From positions 1 to 39,505 of the forward strand of contig CAZWFV010000002.1 of the NCBI GenBank assembly GCA_964633405.1: 39,505 nucleotides of DNA, in the 5' to 3' direction. Position 1 is the stretch's first letter, and every line of letters starts with the position of its first letter. The DNA comes from an uncultured Candidatus Saccharibacteria bacterium. GTDB lineage: Bacteria > Patescibacteriota > Minisyncoccia > UBA6257 > Colwellbacteraceae. A program made the position numbers and the translations under genes. Shown one piece after another: positions 622 through 23,309 of the stretch. Below the pieces are notes generated by a model. The model was not told the origin of the DNA. It did no database searches and saw only the letters and a program-made list of their open reading frames with translations.

Positions 622-771
622 TTACACTCCCGGTTTCTTCTCCAACGCAGCCCATAACGCCAGAATGGCGATGATGATACCGAGGACAGCAAGCCAGGCT
701 GGAGTGGCTCCAGTGTACGCGACAACCACTACGAGAAGACCTAGGACTAAGTTTACCCACTGTTTCCACAT
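622..771 (-). CDS. small hydrophobic protein, 49 aa (below the ORF-track cutoff)
   Basis: Hand translation gives MWKQWVNLVLGLLVVVVAYTGATPAWLAVLGIIIAILALWAALEKKPGV, i.e. two predicted TM helices. ATG at 771-769, TAA at 624-622. A TAATAA box (785-780) lies 8 nt upstream of the ATG, matching the leaderless pattern seen elsewhere. The terminator hairpin 574-602 lies downstream. Confidence 0.45.
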   Translation of the reverse strand: MWKQWVNLVLGLLVVVVAYTGATPAWLAVLGIIIAILALWAALEKKPGV

Positions 772-981: not shown

Positions 982-1977
982 GTGCAAATGGCTGATACAG
1001 GAAATATGATCAATTCGGGTCCCAGGAGTTTCTCCTACTGGTTTCTAAGAGTGCTCTTCGTGGTTGTCCTATTCTCGGTGGTCTATATAGCTTGGGGAGC
1101 CATAAATCACAGAGCATCTGTTTTTCAGTCTCTGCTTATACCGCAGGTGGTCACCCAGGTATATGACGTCAATGGATATACCATCAGCGGCAGGAGCGTC
1201 GTTGCCGGTACGCCTATACATGATGTGGCGATAGTCTCCCCGGAGGCGACATCGACCGGCCCGGTACCGACAGGTAAGGTTAACTTCAGTCTGTTTAACA
1301 ACGGCAGTTGTACCGAACCGTCGCTGTATGCGGAGAGCGGAGTTGTCCTAAATGCGGCTGTGGCTTCATCCACGCCGACTACCACCCCAGTGGGGACTTA
1401 CTCGTTCTTCGTGAATTACAGTGGCGACGTCGATTACACCTCGGCTACGGCCACATGCGAATACTTCACGGTCGCTCCAGGTTCGCCTTCTACGACTGCG
1501 ACACTCGTGACTAGGACACCCGGTTTCTGGCAGGGACACACCTCTTTTACCGAATTTGTGTTCAATACCCAACTTGGCGGTTCGATGCAGATAGGCAACG
1601 CTCCGCACAAGGGGGTTATAACCACCTACGGACAGCTCTTCGGCGCATTCTATGCCGGCGTATCTACCCAGACTGACGGGACCAATAGGTCAGCTTTGGG
1701 CCGGGCACGGATGCAGCTCTTGGAGCAACTGGTCGCGGCCAAACTCAATTGTGCCACCTTCGGTTGTTCTTCTGGTGCTAGTAATGAGATTGCGGTGGCC
1801 GATACCGCCTATGCCGGGAATTCCGCCAGCGATATATTTAACGCGCAGAGCCAGCTGGATACCTACAATAACAGCGGAGACACTGCGGACATTCCGGCGA
1901 CCTTAGGTTCACCGGGCAACGCAACCCCCAAGACATCTCAAAGTCTGGCCGACCTGTCTTTCTGGGACAACCCCTAA
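982..1977 (+). CDS. secreted/membrane-anchored protein with an Ig-like beta-rich domain (331 aa)
   Basis: An N-terminal TM/signal anchor (FLRVLFVVVLFSVVYIAWGA) is followed by a T/S/V-rich beta-type region and a C-terminal Cys-containing domain. The start is GTG 982 or ATG 988. No precise family recognised. Confidence 0.7.
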   Translation: MQMADTGNMINSGPRSFSYWFLRVLFVVVLFSVVYIAWGAINHRASVFQSLLIPQVVTQVYDVNGYTISGRSVVAGTPIHDVAIVSPEATSTGPVPTGKVNFSLFNNGSCTEPSLYAESGVVLNAAVASSTPTTTPVGTYSFFVNYSGDVDYTSATATCEYFTVAPGSPSTTATLVTRTPGFWQGHTSFTEFVFNTQLGGSMQIGNAPHKGVITTYGQLFGAFYAGVSTQTDGTNRSALGRARMQLLEQLVAAKLNCATFGCSSGASNEIAVADTAYAGNSASDIFNAQSQLDTYNNSGDTADIPATLGSPGNATPKTSQSLADLSFWDNP

Positions 1978-1990
1978 CGTTCTGGTCGAA

Positions 1991-2341
1991 ATGGCCAAAA
2001 CGGTCTTTATAGCCCATCCTATAGCCGGAGACGTAGAGAGAAATATGAAGAAGGTCCTCGAGATCTGCGAGGCCGTGCATACAAAGGACATCATTCCAGT
2101 GGCCCCTTATCTTGTGTCATTGCAGTACCTGGACGATAAATTGGTAGAGGAGAGGGAGCTCGGTGCTGCCGCCAATATGGAATGTCTGCACAAGAGATAT
2201 GTGGACGAGGTATGGCTTTTCGGGGATCGTATATCGAATGGGATGTCGAAGGAGATATCGCTGGCGATGGAGCTGGGCATACCGGTGATCCCCAAAACGA
2301 CCGAGACAAAGGGGGCCTTGGAAAAATTGATGGGCAAATAA
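1991..2341 (+). CDS. nucleoside 2-deoxyribosyltransferase-like / DUF4406-like small protein (116 aa)
   Basis: The N-terminal MAKTVFIAHPIAGD and C-terminal VWLFGDRISNGMSKEISLAMELGIPV resemble the Rossmann-like NDT/DUF4406 fold pattern. The assignment is from memory of the family. Confidence 0.6.
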   Translation: MAKTVFIAHPIAGDVERNMKKVLEICEAVHTKDIIPVAPYLVSLQYLDDKLVEERELGAAANMECLHKRYVDEVWLFGDRISNGMSKEISLAMELGIPVIPKTTETKGALEKLMGK

Positions 2342-2354
2342 GATATGATATAAC
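2327..2354 (+). promoter_or_regulatory. promoter of the riboswitch unit (-35 TTGATG, extended -10 TGATATAAC)
   Basis: TTGATG at 2327-2332, a 16-nt spacer with TG at 2346-2347, and TATAAC at 2349-2354. It overlaps the stop codon of the upstream gene. The predicted TSS is near 2361, about 10 nt before riboswitch helix P1. Confidence 0.5.
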
Positions 2355-2370
2355 TCTATTAACAACTTAA

Positions 2371-2474
2371 GATTTTATCGCGAGCGGCGGTTAGAGTTCT
2401 GGCTCGGTGACCCGCCCGGCAACCCTTCGAGGGAGAAGGTGCCACATCCAGCCTGCAAGGGAAAGATAAAAGTC
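2371..2474 (+). promoter_or_regulatory. SAM-I (S-box) riboswitch aptamer
   Basis: Element-by-element match to the remembered SAM-I consensus. P1: TTTTATC 2373-2379 / GATAAAA 2465-2471. J1/2: GCGAG. P2: GGCGG 2386-2390 / CCGCC 2412-2416, with GA-rich k-turn-like strands. P2 loop CTGG 2399-2402 is complementary to CCAG 2448-2451 (pseudoknot). P3: GGCAACC 2418-2424 / GGTGCC 2438-2443. J3/4: ACATCC. J4/1: GAAAGATAA. Confidence 0.85.
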
Positions 2475-2486
2475 GGAAAACATCAA

Positions 2487-2516
2487 CCTCTTTTCTTGTA
2501 GAAGAGGATTTTAATT
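2487..2516 (+). terminator. intrinsic terminator / expression platform of the SAM-I riboswitch
   Basis: The stem CCTCTTT 2487-2493 / GAAGAGG 2501-2507 has a 7-nt loop and is followed by ATTTTAATT. The reverse strand also folds and is followed by TTGATGTTTT, so it may also terminate the convergent def-fmt-tRNA transcript. Confidence 0.75.
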
Positions 2517-2643
2517 CAAACAAACGAAAGACAAACATCTATCGAACTCTTGGATTGATAGCGAAACCCAGAACGACTATCACCAGCTGCTTATGGAGTT
2601 TGAGGAGAAGTTGTAGCTAGGGGTGCTTGCAGGGGTAAAACTG

Positions 2644-2714
2644 CTGCGGGACAGGGATTCGAACCCCAGTTTTTTGGTTCAGAGCCAAACGTCCTACCAC
2701 TAGACGATCCCGCA
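2644..2714 (-). tRNA. tRNA-Gln (anticodon CUG)
   Basis: Hand-folded 71-nt cloverleaf. Acceptor TGCGGGA/TCCCGCA, D arm GTCT-AGTGGTA-GGAC, anticodon arm TTTGG-CTCTGAA-CCAAA, T arm with the GGTTCGAATCC motif, discriminator G. No encoded CCA. Confidence 0.93.
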
Positions 2715-2725
2715 ATATAAGCTTC

Positions 2726-3574
2726 TTAGCTTAAAAAACGAGGCTTTCTGCCTTCTTCTTGAATTGTAGTTAGTTTAAGCCGAGAGTCAACGATTTCAGC
2801 CCTAAGTAGTTTTACTCGCTTGCCGTCTCGTATCGTATAGGTTCCGGGTTCGGGATTCATCCCTAGTATCTTTCTGAGTATACCCATGGCCATTTTCATA
2901 TCTTGTCCGCTTTCTGCGGAATCCAAATCAGCCGGTTCTATATAAGCATCCTCAGATTTTATCTTTTTCGTGAAGGTAGTATTGGCTTCTACTTGCGGTT
3001 CCGGTTTTATCCCTGAAGCAGCGAATTTCGGCAGTGTCTTTAAAAGCAACTCCCCGGCATATCTGGCTAGTGACTCCTCCAATTCAAGATAGGTCCTCGA
3101 ATCGACAGTTATCTTTTCCGATCTGGCTATAACCGGCCCGTGATCGACTTTCTCATCCATCATATACAAAGTAACTCCCGTCTCGGATTCCCCGGTCAGT
3201 ATAACGCTCTGGATAGGGGAGGGACCACGGAATTTAGGAAGAATAGATGGATGTGTGCCAACGACTCCTAAGTGAGGTATTTTCAGTAAAGAATCGGGCA
3301 GAATCTTCGCATATGCGACGACAACAAAGAAATCCGCATTCAGCTGCTTCAGCTTATCTAAGAATTCATCGTCTATTTTAACCGGCTGTAATATTTGGAT
3401 ATCCGCTTTATTATCCAGAATGACCTGCTTAACTGGCGGGGGAGTGACAACCTTCTTCCTGCCAACCGGTTTGTCGACATTACAAACCACCGCTATCGGC
3501 GGCAGGCCGCCGTCAATAAGTCTCTCTAGGACTATCGCCGCGAATTTCGGGGTACCAAGGAAGACGTATCTCAT
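2726..3574 (-). CDS. fmt: methionyl-tRNA formyltransferase (282 aa, short form)
   Basis: N-terminal MRYVFLGTPKFA and the formyltransferase core (VVAYAKILP, GVVGTHPSILPKFRGPSPIQ). ATGA start/stop overlap with def. Confidence 0.93.
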   Translation of the reverse strand: MRYVFLGTPKFAAIVLERLIDGGLPPIAVVCNVDKPVGRKKVVTPPPVKQVILDNKADIQILQPVKIDDEFLDKLKQLNADFFVVVAYAKILPDSLLKIPHLGVVGTHPSILPKFRGPSPIQSVILTGESETGVTLYMMDEKVDHGPVIARSEKITVDSRTYLELEESLARYAGELLLKTLPKFAASGIKPEPQVEANTTFTKKIKSEDAYIEPADLDSAESGQDMKMAMGILRKILGMNPEPGTYTIRDGKRVKLLRAEIVDSRLKLTTIQEEGRKPRFLS

Positions 3575-4032
3575 CTTCTCTTCACGTGATCTAGAAATAT
3601 CTTACCGTTCAAGTGGTCAACCTCGTGCTGGAATGCCCTGGCCAGTAACCCGAAGGCCTTTATTTTTAATTTCTTGCCGTTTTTGTCATAACCGATCAAG
3701 GTGACCCTCTCGGCTCTCGTGACTGGTTTGAAATCGTTGGGAACGCTGAGGCACCCTTCATCCATTATCGACTTGTCCTTGGAAACCTTGGCTATCTCCG
3801 GATTGAACACGGCATAGAACTTGCGTTCCACCCTAGCGACAAACACCCGCATATTCAACCCGATCTGGTTGGCGGACAAGCCAATGCCGTTCGCATCCTC
3901 CATGGTCTTGCGCATCATCCTCACCAGATCGCCGATCTCTTTCCTAGAGAAGGCCTTAAAATCAAACGGCGCTGTAGCCTTGCGGAGGAATTTCTCCTCG
4001 CTGCTATTTTTTATGGTCAGAATCTTTCCCAT
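3571..4032 (-). CDS. def: peptide deformylase
   Basis: The three PDF motifs are present: GIGLSANQIG, EGCLS and HEVDHLNG. Confidence 0.95.
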   Translation of the reverse strand: MGKILTIKNSSEEKFLRKATAPFDFKAFSRKEIGDLVRMMRKTMEDANGIGLSANQIGLNMRVFVARVERKFYAVFNPEIAKVSKDKSIMDEGCLSVPNDFKPVTRAERVTLIGYDKNGKKLKIKAFGLLARAFQHEVDHLNGKIFLDHVKRR

Positions 4033-4267
4033 GATAGAGAAGCCTCATGAAATATGCTCCCTTATTCTTCACATTCTTGCGCTCGGCTATGTCCTTAGCG
4101 AGCTTTATAAGTTTATCGGGATTGTACGATTTAGCCAATTTCATGTAGAGGGCCTTGTGTTCTTCGTCCTCGAGCGTTTTGGCCAGGGTTAGTCCGACCA
4201 GTTGATGAAATGAATATACCTTCGATTCCTTGGTCCTCTTTTTTAATGTCTCGAGGTACTTATCCAT
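4004..4267 (-). CDS. hypothetical basic protein (87 aa), first gene of the def-fmt operon
   Basis: ATG at 4267. A consensus extended -10 box TGGTATAAT (4284-4276) sits 8 nt upstream. The ORF overlaps the def start by 29 nt. No family recognised. Confidence 0.65.
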   Translation of the reverse strand: MDKYLETLKKRTKESKVYSFHQLVGLTLAKTLEDEEHKALYMKLAKSYNPDKLIKLAKDIAERKNVKNKGAYFMRLLYHGKDSDHKK

Positions 4268-4270
4268 TTG

Positions 4271-4299
4271 TTGCCATTATACCAGAATCCCCGTAGAAT
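4271..4299 (+). promoter_or_regulatory. sigma70-like promoter of ctpA-rplI
   Basis: TTGCCA 4271-4276, a 17-nt spacer, TAGAAT 4294-4299. The predicted TSS near 4306 would favour ATG 4312 over ATG 4303 as the ctpA start. Confidence 0.5.
4276..4284 (-). promoter_or_regulatory. extended -10 promoter TGGTATAAT (leaderless start at 4267)
   Basis: The reverse complement of 4276-4284 is TGGTATAAT. An 8-nt spacer separates it from the ATG. It overlaps the divergent ctpA promoter. Confidence 0.6.
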
Positions 4300-4302
4300 C
4301 TT

Positions 4303-5652
4303 ATGGTAAGTATGCCTGGAAAAATTAGGAAGATAGAGGAAGAGCGTGCCGAGATCGACATCAAGGTTGAAAGGGACACCAGAGAGGACAATACCGACGT
4401 AAAACCGAAGAGACGTTGGCATTCTTTGTGGTACAGCAAGGTCATAATCGTGATTCTTCTGGCCGTTATTTTTAGTTCCGGCGTCTATGGAGGATATTAT
4501 TACGGCTTCAAGAAGGGTTTATCGCAGACCAAGACAATAAATATCACCGGCATAGCCGGTGGCACCACCCCCAAGAATGTGACTGCCGACTTCTCGGAGT
4601 TCTGGCAGCTATGGGATCTATTAAAAGGCTCTCAGGTGGACTCGAAGTCCGTGAGCGACCAGCAGTTATTGTACGGTGCCATGTCCGGCCTGGCTGGAGC
4701 ATACAACGACCCATACACGGTTTATTTCGACCCCAAGAGCGCCAACGAGTTCCTCGGCGACGTTAACGGCAGTTTCGGCGGGATAGGCGCTGAGCTCGGT
4801 TCCAAGGAGGGGCAGCTCATAATCATCGCCCCGCTGAAAGATACTCCGGCGGCCGCGGCCGGCCTGCAGGCCCAGGATCAGATACTGGACATTGATTCAA
4901 CCTCAACTGCCAATATGACCATAGATCAGGCGGTGCAGCTAATCCGCGGCGACCCGGGAACGAAAGTAGATCTCACTATATTTAGGGACAGCTGGAGCCA
5001 GCCCAAGGTGATCACCATTACCCGGGCGGTGATCAATGTTCCTACGGTTGATTCGAGCATAAAGGACGGCGATGTACTGTACCTGCAGTTGGATAGCTTT
5101 GATGCCAATGCCAGCCAGCTGTTCGGCAGCGCCGTCATCAATGGTCTGCTAAAGGGAGCTCACGGAATGGTCTTGGATCTGCGTGACGATCCGGGAGGCT
5201 ATCTTGACCAGGCGGTTAATATAGCCGGATGGTTTCTGAACCCCGGCTCAGTGGTGGTAAAAGAACGTTATGCCGACGGGACGGAGACGATCCTGACCGC
5301 CGAGGGCAACGCGGCCCTCAAGAACTTCCCGGTAGTGATCCTTATAAACGGCGGTTCGGCCTCAGCCTCCGAGATCCTGTCCGGGGCATTAAGGGTGGAC
5401 AGAGGAGTTAAGCTGATCGGTGACAAGAGTTTCGGCAAAGGATCGGTCCAGCAGGTAACCCAGTTCTTGGATGGCTCGGCGGCGAAGATAACCATTGCCA
5501 AGTGGCTACTTCCGGACGGCAGCGCAATAGATAAAGTGGGTCTGGTTCCGGATTACAACGTATCTATGTCGGCTACGGATACCCAAGCCGATCCTCAGTT
5601 GGCTAAAGCCCTGCAGGTGCTCCAGGGCGAGATGTCTGGCGCGAACAAGTAA
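4303..5652 (+). CDS. ctpA: carboxy-terminal processing (S41) peptidase with PDZ domain
   Basis: An N-terminal TM anchor, a PDZ-like region (GGIGAELG...IIAPLKDTPAAAAGLQAQDQIL), and the S41 core (VVILINGGSASASEILSGAL, FGKGSVQ). The alternative start ATG 4312 is favoured by the promoter position. Confidence 0.9.
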   Translation: MVSMPGKIRKIEEERAEIDIKVERDTREDNTDVKPKRRWHSLWYSKVIIVILLAVIFSSGVYGGYYYGFKKGLSQTKTINITGIAGGTTPKNVTADFSEFWQLWDLLKGSQVDSKSVSDQQLLYGAMSGLAGAYNDPYTVYFDPKSANEFLGDVNGSFGGIGAELGSKEGQLIIIAPLKDTPAAAAGLQAQDQILDIDSTSTANMTIDQAVQLIRGDPGTKVDLTIFRDSWSQPKVITITRAVINVPTVDSSIKDGDVLYLQLDSFDANASQLFGSAVINGLLKGAHGMVLDLRDDPGGYLDQAVNIAGWFLNPGSVVVKERYADGTETILTAEGNAALKNFPVVILINGGSASASEILSGALRVDRGVKLIGDKSFGKGSVQQVTQFLDGSAAKITIAKWLLPDGSAIDKVGLVPDYNVSMSATDTQADPQLAKALQVLQGEMSGANK

Positions 5653-6101
5653 TGAAGGTGATTCTCCTGCAGGACCTCCGCGGTTTAGGCAAGAAAAATG
5701 ACATTAAAGATGTCTCCGAAGGCTACGGCCGTAATTTCCTGATCCCTCGGGGCATAGTTAAAATCGCCGATCAGGCTGCACTGGCTGAGCTCAAATCTAA
5801 GGCTGAGGAAGAGAAGAAACACATTGAAGCAAACAGGGTGAAGTTAAACGAGCTGATCAGAGCCACCGAGGAGGCCCCGCTCATATTCAAATTGAGAGTG
5901 GGAGAGAGAAATGAGATCTTCGGCTCGGTGACGCCCAAAGACATAAAGGCAGAGATAAAGTCTGTCTATCCGAAATTAAGCCCCGATGAGTTAGATATAA
6001 AAAACGAGCGCCCCATTAAGGCTCTCGGTTCGCATGACGTTATGATTAGCTTGAGGGGGGGAGTGGAGGGTAAAGTCAGGGTGCTTATCGAAAAGGCTTA
6101 A
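5652..6101 (+). CDS. rplI: 50S ribosomal protein L9
   Basis: [34 protein letters not shown] is the canonical L9 N-terminus. TAATG overlap with the ctpA stop. Confidence 0.93.
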
Positions 6102-6376
6102 TTTGGGACTACCGAAACAAGTTTGGCATAGCGGATGTTGCGGTCAAAACGCACCTTCTTCTTAGTGGTGAACTTAACCGTCCCGGCTTTGGCTGCAAAC
6201 AGGGTATCGTCACTGCCTATGCTTACATTCTTCCCGGCGATGAAGTGCGAGCCGCGCTGCCTTACTATTATTTGTCCAGGCATAGCCTTCTGGCCATCAT
6301 GAAGTTTAACGCCAAGCCTCTTGGCGGCGGATTCACGGCCTAACTTTGTTGAACCTCCTGCTTTTGTATGTGCCAT
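6098..6376 (-). CDS. rpmA: 50S ribosomal protein L27
   Basis: [24 protein letters not shown]...IIVRQRG is canonical L27. The stop overlaps the rplI stop in a TTAA palindrome. Confidence 0.95.
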
Positions 6377-6486
6377 CCACTTATATAGATATGCTTATTT
6401 AGAACGGTATCATTATGGCTTTTGATTGGCGGTTATGTCAATCCCTTATCGACACGTCTGGCCTTTAATGATTAAATTATATCAAT

Positions 6487-7050
6487 ATGGAGATTCAGAA
6501 CGGCAAATATTATGAGTTGGGCAGGCATGCTCTTATGTATTCTATAGTTCAACACAGCACCGTACCCCTCGTTACGCTGGTGATAAGCGGCATTCTGGGG
6601 GTTATAGCCTCATCCCTGCCCGGCGCCTCATCCTTCGGACAGATCCTGGCCGTAGTCTCCCTTCTGCTTGTGGGTCTAGCGATAGTAATAGAAGTAATAG
6701 CCGCGATTGTGGCAAAGCTGGAATACTCCGTCTCTAAAATTATGCTGGATGACACCTCTTTGAGAGTGGTATCCGGTATCTTTAATAAAGAGGAAGTGGC
6801 TATACCCTTCAGGCGTATCGAGAGCGTTGAAATAAAACAGGGCATGTTGCATCAGATGATGCACGTAGGCCACGTGGTTGTGTCTACAATAACCGATTTT
6901 GAAATGCCCGGTCAGAAAGAGAACGAGTCTGACGAGGAGGTGGTGCCGATTATGGATTACGACCTCTCAAAAGCAGTAGCCGACGCCCTGACCTCTAGAG
7001 CTGAAGTGGAGCGTATGCATGTGGAGGGGGCATCCAACATCGCCAAATAA
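6487..7050 (+). CDS. membrane protein with bacterial PH domain (YdbS/YdbT-like)
   Basis: Two TM helices are followed by LRVVSGIFNKEEVAIPFRRIESVEIKQGMLHQMMHVGHVVVST, typical of the bPH_2/DUF304 family. Confidence 0.75.
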   Translation: MEIQNGKYYELGRHALMYSIVQHSTVPLVTLVISGILGVIASSLPGASSFGQILAVVSLLLVGLAIVIEVIAAIVAKLEYSVSKIMLDDTSLRVVSGIFNKEEVAIPFRRIESVEIKQGMLHQMMHVGHVVVSTITDFEMPGQKENESDEEVVPIMDYDLSKAVADALTSRAEVERMHVEGASNIAK

Positions 7051-7070
7051 GCATCCCATCTAAGGCTAGT

Positions 7071-7832
7071 TTAGTAACCTATCTTCTTAAGCCAATACTC
7101 ATTCTCCCATTCCCACAGCTTCTTGGCTGCTAGAAAGGCATGATAATCCTCGTACCAGTAAGGGAATTCCCTTAACTCGACTATCCCGGTAACGTCTGAC
7201 CACTCGTGCGTCCCGGGAAGACACGCCTTGCCGTTTCTGCCGTTCTTAACTTTTTCACGGCCCCCCTTGGCCCTTCTAGTGGCTCCGCACTTCAGGCAGG
7301 TTTGCGCCTGATCTATTCTTAATATCCAACGGGTCTGCAGGTTCTTCATAGTATCCTGCAACGCAGCCATATAAGCGGAGGTCTGTAAATTGTAATCGCG
7401 GTACACCGCCTGTGACGTCTTGATGTCCAATACGCCGAACTTACCGTCGATCAACGCCAGCGAGTCTACCGTCCCGGCATAACGGTCGTTGTAGTTGATG
7501 ACCTGCTTTTCGATATAGTCTTTGTCGACCTGGATCTTCGTCTTTCCCAGGAAATCATTGAAGGCTTTGATCGACGGTTCGATCTGAGGATTGATATCAA
7601 CCTCCTCACCCTTTAGAAGAGCCTCCACGGTTTCGTGAACAAGCGTCCCTTCCTCAGCGGAGTTCTTCTTTATACTTTCACCCTCGGCATAATTGGAAAG
7701 CTCAGCGTAAAAGCGATATAGGGCTGGCTTGGCCTTTATAGACACTATGCTGGTGACCCGTGGATACCAGACCCCGTCTATAACATAACCATTGAGAGCC
7801 TTGAAGCCCTTTTCGTCGTTAACCGGATACAT
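7071..7832 (-). CDS. PD-(D/E)XK nuclease family protein with inserted Cys/His zinc-ribbon-like segment
   Basis: GTVDSLALIDGKFGVLDIKTS supplies the D...D-x-K motif and QTSAYMAAL the QxxxY motif. The insertion reads CLKCGATRRAKGG...KACLPGTHEW. Confidence 0.75.
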   Translation of the reverse strand: MYPVNDEKGFKALNGYVIDGVWYPRVTSIVSIKAKPALYRFYAELSNYAEGESIKKNSAEEGTLVHETVEALLKGEEVDINPQIEPSIKAFNDFLGKTKIQVDKDYIEKQVINYNDRYAGTVDSLALIDGKFGVLDIKTSQAVYRDYNLQTSAYMAALQDTMKNLQTRWILRIDQAQTCLKCGATRRAKGGREKVKNGRNGKACLPGTHEWSDVTGIVELREFPYWYEDYHAFLAAKKLWEWENEYWLKKIGY

Positions 7833-7847
7833 CGCCGTAAAATCGGT

Positions 7848-9185
7848 TTATTGTAGCAAGCGGTCGGTGAGTTTAATAATATCACCGGCGCCCATCATCA
7901 CCGCAACGTTAGACTTCAATCCATTCTCGTTTACGATGCCTTTCAGGAGCCCTTTTATGTTCTGAGGGGAGGGGAGATAAGTGACATCCAATTGTCGATT
8001 TCGTTTCGCTATGGCTTTGGCCAGCTTGGCTGAGTTAACGTTATGCGACGTATTATCACGGCCGTTAACCCTATAAGTATCTATCAGGATAAGCGAATCT
8101 ACATCATTGAAACTATTCCTGAAATCATCGAATAGGACTTTCAATCGATGCGATTGGTGAGGTTGGAATACGCATATCAATTGTGAACGGTGGAAGTGAT
8201 CACGAAAGGCTCGAAGCGTCGCTTTGATCTCCGTAGGGTGATGGGCGTAATCGTCGTAGATTTCAATAATATATTTGCCGGCCCTTAGCTTACCGCGATA
8301 TTCCATGCGGCGCCAGGCACCCCTATAACCCGAGATTGCTTCAAGTATATCTTCCTCGGCTATTCCCAGTACATCTCCGACCAGAGAAGCCGCTAGCGCG
8401 TTGGATACGTTGAATTCTCCATATATCTGTAAAATCTTTCTCAATTGTTTTACGCGTTTCACGTATTTTCTGCCGTTTAGACTAAACCAGACGGTCTCTT
8501 CCGGAAGTTCGTCGGCTAGGCCCCGTATTCCGGGATCGTCATAGTTGGCGATGATTACGCCGCCGTCCTTCACGTTCTCAGCGAATTCTAAGAATGCCTT
8601 CTGGACATTGCGGAGATTTTTATAGTAATCGAGGTGTTCTCGGTCAACGTTATTCAACACAAGGACGTCCGGTTCATAGTTTGCGAACGCCCGACGATAC
8701 TCGTCGGCCTCAATCACCAGATACCCGCACTTGCCCATCCTGAAATTAGTGTTATCGAACTCCCTTAATCTGGTGCCGACGATTACGGTCGGATCCAGTC
8801 CGCCAGCCATCAGAACCCTGGCAGCTAAGGCCGTAGTCGTGCTCTTGCCGTGCGATCCGGCCACGGCCACTGTCCGATTTTCTCTGGTTAGGGCTCCCAA
8901 GGCCTCCGGATAGCTCGAAACTGGTATCTCTAGCCGTTCAGCCTCTGCCAGTTCAGGGTTGGTCAGGGGAATGGCCTGACTGTAGATGACCAAGGCCGTA
9001 TCTGTGTCCAAGTTATTCTTATAGTGGCCAATTTTAATTTTTGCGCCTTCGCGGCGCAAATCATCGGTCATAATGCTTTCCTCGGCATCAGAGCCCGTTA
9101 CAGCCCAATTTTGAGCCAAGAAATAGCGGGCTAGGGCGCTAACGCCAATTCCGCCTATACCTATGAAATGAACCTTTAAATGCAT
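7848..9185 (-). CDS. murC: UDP-N-acetylmuramate--L-alanine ligase
   Basis: HFIGIGGIGVSALA (N-terminal Rossmann), GSHGKSTTTA (P-loop), and Mur ligase middle and C-terminal domains. Confidence 0.95.
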   Translation of the reverse strand: MHLKVHFIGIGGIGVSALARYFLAQNWAVTGSDAEESIMTDDLRREGAKIKIGHYKNNLDTDTALVIYSQAIPLTNPELAEAERLEIPVSSYPEALGALTRENRTVAVAGSHGKSTTTALAARVLMAGGLDPTVIVGTRLREFDNTNFRMGKCGYLVIEADEYRRAFANYEPDVLVLNNVDREHLDYYKNLRNVQKAFLEFAENVKDGGVIIANYDDPGIRGLADELPEETVWFSLNGRKYVKRVKQLRKILQIYGEFNVSNALAASLVGDVLGIAEEDILEAISGYRGAWRRMEYRGKLRAGKYIIEIYDDYAHHPTEIKATLRAFRDHFHRSQLICVFQPHQSHRLKVLFDDFRNSFNDVDSLILIDTYRVNGRDNTSHNVNSAKLAKAIAKRNRQLDVTYLPSPQNIKGLLKGIVNENGLKSNVAVMMGAGDIIKLTDRLLQ

Positions 9186-12175: not shown

Positions 12176-13570
12176 TTATCTGGCCTTGGCTATGGCATTA
12201 TCGATCCGGCGCAGGCTTTCGGTTTTACCTAGAGCTTCCATTATCTCAAACGGTCCAGGCGACGTCTTGCTACCGGATAGAGCAACTCTCAACGGCCAGA
12301 AGAACTCTCCCCTATTCCCTTCCGGAGCGAGCGGGGAAAGTACATTTTCTAATTTACCCTTGTTGAAATCGCTGTCGGGAATTTTGTTAAGCACGGTCAA
12401 CGCCGATTCCAGATTTAAGGCTACCTGCGACAGTTGCATATCTTTCCATATAAGCAGGCTCGGCTCATAGTCCGGCAGTTTGAAAAAAAACTCTACCAAG
12501 CCGCCGATATCAGACAGCTTTTTGACCCGGCCAGATATGGTCGACATCATCGCGGGGGTAAGCGTCCAATTCTTAGGTATGAACGGTCGTGAAGTCTCAA
12601 TCAACTCTGACAGACTAAGCTTACTTATATAATGGCTGTTCAGCCAATCCAGTTTGTCTATATTGAATACGGCACCCGACTTTTGGACTCTGCTTAAGTC
12701 GAATTCATCGATAATATTGGTTAGAGACATCTCATCCTTGTCCTCTTTCGGGTGCCAACCCAGGAAAGATATGAAATTTACCATGGCTTGGGCCAGGTAA
12801 CCTTTATCGCGATAATAGCGCAAGGCGACATCGGATACGCGTTTGGACATCTTGCTGCGATCCGGATTGAGGATGAGCGGTAAATGCGCAAACTGGGGTA
12901 TATTCAGACCCATAGCCTCTGCCAGGACAATCTGCTTAGGGGTATTTGATAAATGCTCCTCCCCTCTTATAACGTGCGTTATGTCCATCAGCGCATCGTC
13001 TACCACTACCGCGAAGTTGTACAGCGGCTGATCTATATCCTTGGCAATTATTATGTCTCCGGCCAGAGACATATCGAATCTTATATGTCCCCTAATCGTA
13101 TCAGTGAAAGACACCTTTTTCTCGGGAACCTTGAAACGGATGACGTGGCCATCGCCCGCATCCAGACGCTTGGTCACATCTTCTTTCGAAAAGGAACGGC
13201 ATCGTCCGGAGTATTTAGGGGGCAGACCCTGGGTGATCATAGCCTGTCTTTCGGCCTCGAGGTCTTCCTTGGAGCAGAAGCAATAGTATGCCTTGCCGTC
13301 GTCAATCAGTTTTTTCAGGTATTCGTGGTATATACCGATGCGGTCCATCTGTCGATAGAATTCATCCCAAGTTATGCCTAACCAGGACAGTCCGTCCACT
13401 ATATCCGCCTCCGATTCGGGGGTTGAGCGTTCCCTATCGGTGTCCTCCATCCGGAGGATGAAGTGACCATCCTGCGATTTAGCGTAAAGCCAGCTAAACA
13501 GAGCAGTACGGGCGCCTCCAATATGCAGTGGCCCCGTAGGAGAAGGAGCAAACCTAGTTCTTACTACCAT
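12176..13570 (-). CDS. gltX: glutamyl-tRNA synthetase
   Basis: RFAPSPTGPLHIGGARTALF (HIGH motif) and KMSKR (KMSKS motif). Confidence 0.95.
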   Translation of the reverse strand: MVVRTRFAPSPTGPLHIGGARTALFSWLYAKSQDGHFILRMEDTDRERSTPESEADIVDGLSWLGITWDEFYRQMDRIGIYHEYLKKLIDDGKAYYCFCSKEDLEAERQAMITQGLPPKYSGRCRSFSKEDVTKRLDAGDGHVIRFKVPEKKVSFTDTIRGHIRFDMSLAGDIIIAKDIDQPLYNFAVVVDDALMDITHVIRGEEHLSNTPKQIVLAEAMGLNIPQFAHLPLILNPDRSKMSKRVSDVALRYYRDKGYLAQAMVNFISFLGWHPKEDKDEMSLTNIIDEFDLSRVQKSGAVFNIDKLDWLNSHYISKLSLSELIETSRPFIPKNWTLTPAMMSTISGRVKKLSDIGGLVEFFFKLPDYEPSLLIWKDMQLSQVALNLESALTVLNKIPDSDFNKGKLENVLSPLAPEGNRGEFFWPLRVALSGSKTSPGPFEIMEALGKTESLRRIDNAIAKAR

Positions 13571-23168: not shown

Positions 23169-23239
23169 TGCGGGATCGTCTAACGGTAGGACTGCAGGTT
23201 TTGGACCTGCGTATCTAGGTTCGAATCCTAGTCCCGCAG
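23169..23239 (+). tRNA. tRNA-Gln (anticodon UUG)
   Basis: Hand-folded 71-nt cloverleaf. Acceptor TGCGGGA/TCCCGCA, anticodon arm GCAGG-TTTTGGA-CCTGC, T arm CTAGG-TTCGAAT-CCTAG. No encoded CCA. Confidence 0.93.
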
Positions 23240-23309
23240 CAGCAATAAAAATAATCTTATATCGTGAACGAACTATCTTCCTCTGATTTCCTAGCTGAAT
23301 ATTAATAAC

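Follow-up and report, generated by a model that had tools for sequence, protein, structure and literature searches.

Here we describe a riboswitch of the SAM-I (S-box) family, named for S-adenosylmethionine (SAM), in a stretch of 39,505 nucleotides (nt) from an uncultured Candidatus Saccharibacteria bacterium (GenBank assembly GCA_964633405.1, contig CAZWFV010000002.1)—the whole stretch is called the window, and its numbering is used throughout. The riboswitch is intact and belongs to a class of leaders recovered from metagenome contigs, at least some of them Patescibacterial; however, it has no downstream gene of its own (its cargo), and it points head-on at a tRNA-Gln(CUG)/fmt/def block in an arrangement that is not conserved among relatives. 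The reading we favor, with confidence about evenly divided for and against it, is that of an intact and still-active Patescibacteria-type SAM-I OFF-switch leader whose cargo gene was lost by turnover of a variable island. An earlier note on this DNA had offered three options: SAM-gated antisense control of the facing operon, a stand-alone SAM-sensing small RNA (sRNA), or a relic left by loss of the regulated gene. The evidence leans to the third, because the relatives' leader precedes metK or other open reading frames (ORFs), the tRNA-Gln flank varies between strains, and the arrangement opposite fmt and def is absent from 24 of 24 fmt-anchored loci; the other two gain no support from the sequence alone and are less likely.

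The identity of the aptamer is established by the Rfam covariance model for the family. A cmscan search at the gathering threshold (GA) matched RF00162 (SAM-I) to 2372-2472 on the + strand over the full model (1-108), with 54.3 bits against a GA of 44.4 and an E-value of 6e-10, or 7e-12 when a 461-nt region was scanned alone; no other RNA family appeared in that region (2300-2760) at E<=1, apart from tRNA. The SAM-I assignment in the earlier note is thereby confirmed over the full length of the model, and P1, P2, P3 and the pseudoknot each lie where it had placed them. Except for the first line, which rests on RF00162 and the class alignment, the following parts were read directly from the sequence:

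2372-2472, + strand: SAM-I (S-box) aptamer, with helices P1-P4, a putative kink-turn (k-turn) and a pseudoknot
2373-2379 / 2465-2471, + strand: P1, UUUUAUC/GAUAAAA, seven Watson-Crick pairs
2386-2390 / 2412-2416, + strand: P2a, GGCGG/CCGCC
P2b, + strand: GAG/CUC
2399-2402 / 2448-2451, + strand: pseudoknot, CUGG in the P2 loop with CCAG in J3/4
2418-2424 / 2438-2443, + strand: P3 and its distal stem
P4, + strand: CCU/GGG, a short helix closing a GCAA loop

Every helix pair of the aptamer can form in the window copy. The GAG of J1/2, the bulged A of GCAACC, the U of GGUGC and the UAUC/GAUA of P1 are all in place when the window is aligned to the Rfam consensus, and all are invariant in the class; these make up the ligand-contacting core, with the SAM contacts taken from the T. 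tengcongensis structure. Where a k-turn in P2 would have tandem sheared G.A pairs, the 3' strand, UGA, is likewise invariant; the window has UA rather than GA on the 5' strand, so its second pair would be A.U, and the resulting U at position 2n is shared with nine of 38 relatives, all nine of which have real ORFs. Both strands of the pseudoknot are invariant across the 39-sequence class alignment and hence offer no covariation evidence. P1, at seven base pairs (bp), ties the class maximum (the mode is 5 bp), a length that should favor the terminated state. A plain minimum-free-energy fold of the whole leader did not reproduce the aptamer and was not used as evidence; this failure is expected because tertiary and ligand energies lie outside the model. 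The locus is also unlikely to be an assembly chimera, since a Logan contig assembled independently (L037, SRR12217123) carries at 100% identity the junction that runs from an immunoglobulin-like (Ig-like) gene upstream of the riboswitch to the tRNA-Gln gene downstream.

Around the aptamer lie the remaining modules of a complete transcription unit:

2327-2354, + strand: putative promoter placed by the class layout, with a -35 of TTGATG (2327-2332), a 16-nt spacer and an extended -10 of TGATATAAC (2346-2354)
2362-2371, + strand: leader motif ACAACTTAAG (class consensus ACAAYTGAATA), found 6-7 nt past the -10 of almost every AT-rich member
2454-2466, + strand: upstream strand of the antiterminator (P4 loop, 3' strand and J4/1), pairing with 2489-2500 in RNAduplex
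2487-2516, + strand: intrinsic terminator from a terminator scan and folding, an 8-bp hairpin (2487-2507) followed by AUUUUAAUU

The extended -10 promoter proposed in the earlier note fits the layout of the relatives—TGnTAnnnT, 6-7 nt, then an ACAAYT leader—but it went unlisted in a generic promoter scan, because that scan demands a T at the last -10 position. The window reads TTGATG-16 nt-TGATATAAC, then 7 nt, then ACAACTT, and a near-identical string occurs in the relative L072; transcription probably starts near 2361-2362. We dropped the idea that the final C of the -10 (TATAAC) marks decay and thus a crippled promoter: L099 and L110 share TGnTATAAC in front of real ORFs. The leader motif shows no general pairing with downstream sequence across 39 loci (mean z ~0); its complement is present after the terminator in L087, L096 and L162.

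The antiterminator and terminator are mutually exclusive and, by energies and pairing, homologous to the class design. Strand 2454-2466 forms 12 pairs with 2489-2500 at -9.7 kcal/mol in RNAduplex (-8.8 in the class comparison), a pairing that corresponds to GGGAAAGA : UCUUUCUC in the class. Among + strand sites in 1900-3000, only the 2487-2507 hairpin with the ATTTTAATT behind it is terminator-like; it folds at -8.1 kcal/mol with a z of -2.1 (-7.0 kcal/mol in the class comparison). The terminator and the OFF design of the earlier note both hold. Class medians are -10.4 for the terminator and -12.1 for the antiterminator; both window values fall in the weakest fifth, within range, and the difference between them resembles that of the medians. 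On the - strand the same hairpin is followed by UUGAUGUUUU, and that strand has no second terminator-like site from tRNA-Gln to the DUF7768 gene upstream of the riboswitch; the hairpin might therefore also end tRNA-Gln/fmt transcripts.

Class membership was judged against relatives recovered by a scan of metagenome contigs; its degenerate pattern came from the aptamer's 5' half, and it gave at least 120 loci. The AT-rich majority share one layout: a sigma-70-like, TGn-extended -10, 6-7 nt, ACAAYTGAATA, the aptamer, the terminator, a U-run and an ORF (examples are L100 751-865 on the - strand, L072 2830-2931 on the - strand and L099 ~2715-2830 on the + strand). The 5' arm of the class terminator, CUCUUUC, is complementary to its own 3' arm as well as to GGGAAAGA in the aptamer (P4 3' strand/J4-1), and the ORF generally begins 20-60 nt after the U-run, or up to ~300 nt in a few loci. 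All ten class loci tested pass RF00162 with 48.1-72.1 bits; all ten have downstream ORFs, and the window score lies within their range. In the 39-sequence alignment, 91.7% of cells are paired under the SAM-I structure compared with 35-46% in slid controls; in 13 pairs both partners have changed, covariation extends to all five pairs of P2a, and in 500 shuffles the observed value was reached 0 times.

In these relatives the cargo is mostly a short MetK of 310-350 amino acids (aa), Pfam-confirmed for L049. Two of the downstream MetK proteins have identical counterparts in Candidatus Paceibacterota and Moraniibacteriota metagenome-assembled genomes (MAGs), so at least part of the class is Patescibacterial. 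At least five small-protein families without a Pfam match also lie behind the leader; preceding at least six unrelated gene families, it has evidently been shuffled between genes. The small families include Cys-rich proteins of 93-96 aa (L100/L159/L094), whose C-terminal motif (...PIS..., W-H-x-P-Y-F) recurs by eye in 166-196-aa proteins of L072/L070/L114; a ~140-aa family with the motif FVPxRLEI...NFPLNV (L099/L075/L110/L145/L054); an 80-110 aa family (L093/L112/L091); and 53-aa ORFs (L056/L066). These families are candidates for SAM- or methionine-linked functions.

The window copy has no such cargo. Of the 72 distinct relatives listed, all those with at least 500 nt of downstream sequence have an ORF of at least 60 aa on the same strand that begins no more than 450 nt away, and among the matches listed the window is the only cargo-less copy of the 73 distinct ones compared. 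In the window, the longest + strand ORF to begin in the 450 nt past the end of the aptamer has 37 aa, in agreement with the earlier note, which saw no plausible + strand ORF there. What follows the terminator is the following:

2517-2642, no strand assigned: spacer of 126 nt without a credible ORF, gene remnant or known RNA (ORF list, tblastn, Rfam and folding)
2555-2620, + strand: 21-aa ORF with a TTG start, within the spacer
2593-2616, + strand: 7-codon ORF with an ATG start, within the spacer

A tblastn search with all class cargo proteins found no cargo-gene remnant, either in 1900-2760 or in the whole window. A 33-codon open frame at 2515-2613 was considered as a remnant and rejected, as it matches only translated tandem-repeat junk among 1.84 billion representatives. 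Folding of the spacer gave no convincing structured RNA (z of -1.76 on the + strand and +0.93 on the - strand). The 39-kb window holds no methionine or SAM metabolism gene for the switch to serve. With no ORF after it, this SAM-I leader does not head a methionine, cysteine or SAM metabolism or transport gene—a departure that concerns genomic context and not the RNA family. Four relatives (L047, L073, L124 and L151) looked orphaned at first; in each, a palindromic insert precedes the ORF. These GC-rich inserts (GGGCGCAAACGGCC...GGCCGTTTGCGCC) lie between the SAM-I terminator and the ORF and resemble miniature inverted-repeat elements; in L139 the same interval holds TTCGAAA-type tandem repeats.

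The genomic setting suggests how a leader might come to be separated from its gene. On its two sides lie the following genes:

982-1977, + strand: gene for an Ig-like (Big_3_5) secreted or surface protein, the first gene of a window-specific island (PF16640, below the curated cut-off)
1991-2341, + strand: DUF7768/DUF4406 gene directly 5' of the riboswitch, its stop codon within the riboswitch promoter (PF24963, 88.6 bits)
2643-2714, - strand: tRNA-Gln(CUG), convergent with the riboswitch, at the border between a conserved block and the variable island (ARAGORN and Rfam)
2726-3574, - strand: fmt (Pfam Formyl_trans_N/C)
3571-4032, - strand: def (Pfam Pep_deformylase)

As the earlier note described, tRNA-Gln, fmt and def stand on the opposite strand; they start 127 nt past the terminator, and read-through would be antisense to all three. 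The block running from a Mur ligase through L27, L9, CtpA, an 87-aa ORF, def and fmt to tRNA-Gln is syntenic in L001, L002/L166 and L164, and the adjacency of fmt and tRNA-Gln is kept in L001-L004 and L164-L169. Past tRNA-Gln the content changes in every case, though synteny holds on both flanks: L001 has five unrelated genes, L002 a 188-aa protein and a Znu transporter, L164 a restriction-modification enzyme, and the window the riboswitch, the DUF7768 gene and the Ig-like gene. In L001 synteny returns beyond the island (4941-8590) with a homolog of window 622-771. L168 and L169 encode an identical Fmt protein and match at 99.6% identity over 1870 nt, but diverge totally ~36 nt past the tRNA (at ~1894 in L168 and ~1870 in L169), which makes this flank a hot spot of recombination down to the level of strains. 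The earlier note had asked whether relatives keep the unit opposite def-fmt-tRNA-Gln, and they do not: in the available sequence, 0 of 24 fmt-anchored loci of other Patescibacteria carry a SAM riboswitch.

The Ig-like gene is absent from the equivalent position in relatives, and its protein is uninformative as a tracer of the island, its 19 homologs being all partial and no more than 57% identical. No att-like repeats of the tRNA 3' end were found flanking the island in the window. A standing linkage between the riboswitch and the DUF7768 gene was considered and rejected: the gene has 191 homologs, and four of the closest (six loci) sit in unrelated contexts, none with a SAM riboswitch after it. 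The closest fmt genes are Patescibacterial (Colwellbacteria/Paceibacteria-like MAGs, the best 72% identical), and elsewhere the window carries the usual Patescibacterial housekeeping genes: Mur ligase, MurG, FtsW, MraY, ScpAB, DnaX, trigger factor and BipA. The conserved 87-aa ORF (4004-4267, - strand) overlaps the def start, has a weak DnaJ-like match and is found upstream of def in 10 relatives at 46-75% identity. The window also contains a second tRNA-Gln with anticodon UUG (23169-23240, + strand) and a class I Glu/Gln-type tRNA synthetase gene (12176-13570, - strand).

Taken together, we picture a leader that was stranded recently, cut from its gene by recombination and not decayed since. 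The island—Ig-like gene, DUF7768 gene and, at its inner edge beside tRNA-Gln, the riboswitch leader—would most likely have arrived, or been truncated, by a recombination event with its end point just past the riboswitch terminator. Drawing on the anatomy and the S-box paradigm, transcription would begin near 2362; with SAM bound, the 7-bp P1 would hold, the 2487-2507 hairpin would form and an RNA of ~155 nt would be released. With SAM absent, 2454-2466 would pair with 2489-2500 and some polymerases would continue into tRNA-Gln, fmt and def in the antisense direction. The unit is probably still active, and read-through could have regulatory consequences; we consider it a by-product of stranding and not a selected circuit. 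We see no sign of selection for antisense transcription: this genome alone has the arrangement, antisense placement is not enriched in the SAM family, and tRNA-Gln has its own promoter-like site. The earlier note had expected of a relic both that relatives carry the leader directly upstream of a methionine or SAM gene and that this copy bears helix-breaking substitutions. The first is so, with metK as the gene; the second is not—no such substitution is seen, which is why we regard the leader as recent and intact rather than as a decayed relic.

Several observations weigh against a stranded leader. All modules are intact and show none of the decay of an old relic, and the score and energy balance resemble those of cargo-bearing copies. 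At class columns with a conservation of 90% or more the window never departs from the class, in a test of low power, as ~28 conserved positions were fixed beforehand by the search pattern. A streamlined genome would be expected to shed some 300 nt of useless DNA, so its retention could reflect selection. The tblastn searches of 1900-2760 and of the window returned no piece of a cargo gene, and the databases hold no close relative showing the ancestral state, the best fmt match being 72% identical. Finally, antisense control by a riboswitch has a real precedent in Clostridium acetobutylicum (PMC2566862).

That precedent bears on the alternative that survives best, namely a selected antisense regulator: at low SAM, read-through would occur, and the antisense transcript or polymerase collision would lower tRNA-Gln(CUG), fmt and def. 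We think this unlikely, and equally unlikely its corollary, by analogy with the S-box of ubiG-mccBA, that it couples methionine and SAM status to N-terminal methionine formylation and deformylation. It draws on the convergent geometry, the unit's own promoter, the lack of a + strand terminator in between before 3985, the missing cargo ORF, an intact switch balanced like its class, and the thematic tie between SAM or methionine and fmt/def. In C. acetobutylicum the ubiG-mccB-mccA operon's S-box-controlled antisense RNA has been shown experimentally and is metabolically coherent, as it concerns methionine-to-cysteine conversion (PMC2566862); a wider survey reports 292 antisense-acting cases inferred over all riboswitch families (Serrano-Gutierrez and Merino 2023, PMC9943018). 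However, the same survey places only 56 of 8,095 SAM riboswitches (~0.7%) antisense to genes, with P = 1.0 and no tendency toward such placement. The arrangement in the window is not conserved (0 of 24 fmt-anchored loci) and its flank turns over even between strains; the promoter-like site of tRNA-Gln lies inside fmt; a P1 as long as any in the class, together with a weak antiterminator, favors termination; and the physiological logic is weaker than for ubiG. We hold it more doubtful still that selection kept the orphan switch as a SAM-gated antisense promoter, throttling tRNA-Gln(CUG), fmt and def when methyl-donor or methionine supply is low.

Less probable again is a stand-alone SAM-sensing sRNA, in which the ~155-nt terminated leader would act in trans by base pairing or serve as a SAM buffer. 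The full promoter-to-terminator unit, the stable 7-bp P1 and the bias to a terminated product would suit such a role, which by analogy has a precedent in SreA and SreB of Listeria monocytogenes. These were reportedly described by Loh and colleagues in 2009 as trans-acting SAM riboswitches with prfA as the mapped target; they are also said to keep their cis cargo genes and so to be ordinary cis-acting leaders too, unlike the window copy, which is a single occurrence among 73 class copies and shows no conservation. Finally, it is very improbable that the switch controls a coding sequence missed by ORF calling (the 7-codon ATG ORF, the 21-codon TTG ORF or the distant ctpA at 4303): some class members do precede ORFs as small as 53 aa, but neither mini-ORF has a ribosome-binding site or any likeness to class cargo, and ctpA lies 1.8 kb off behind three antisense genes, with its own promoter-like site at 4271-4299. 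Whatever likelihood these explanations leave falls to something not considered here.

The RNA belongs to a very well known family, and both cargo-less and antisense-placed riboswitches are already known; the interest of this locus lies in its setting. As it stands, a stranded leader would be a clean natural example of a riboswitch just after gene loss, and it suggests that such leaders move as cassettes at tRNA-linked variable islands in Patescibacteria. If the antisense interpretation were true, the locus would offer a rare instance of antisense control gated by a riboswitch, in a phylum whose gene regulation is almost unexplored—and, if selected, no earlier antisense circuit under riboswitch control would act on the chemistry of translation initiation, nor would any regulatory RNA circuit have been described before in the phylum. 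The leader family itself, with its defined promoter, motif and terminator, might be used as a ligand-controlled expression part native to these hard-to-engineer bacteria, and its regulon flags several unknown small-protein families as likely SAM- or methionine-linked.

Several known systems provide a frame for the window copy. Like SreA and SreB, its SAM-I leader could, once terminated, occur as a separate small RNA; those two reportedly have cis cargo and a mapped target, whereas the window copy is cargo-less. The survey of KEGG genomes in PMC9943018 catalogues antisense-located riboswitches beside pseudogenes, transposases or orphan small genes, a class that the window resembles in having a riboswitch aimed against the next gene; the parts of it consulted contain no Patescibacterial case beside a tRNA island hot spot. 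The ubiG system of C. acetobutylicum is similar in geometry—a methionine-related operon has at its 3' end a convergent SAM-I riboswitch driven by a promoter of its own, and read-through at low SAM would give antisense RNA—but the target in the window would be tRNA-Gln/fmt/def, in an arrangement absent from all relatives examined. In comparison with RF00162 OFF switches 5' of metK, the window copy differs in having no downstream gene, in the GAG/CUC lineage variant of P2b, in the U at k-turn position 2n and in the GCGAG of J1/2; it shares with them the four-way junction of P1-P4, a putative k-turn, the pseudoknot between the P2 loop and J3/4, the conserved core and a competing antiterminator and terminator.

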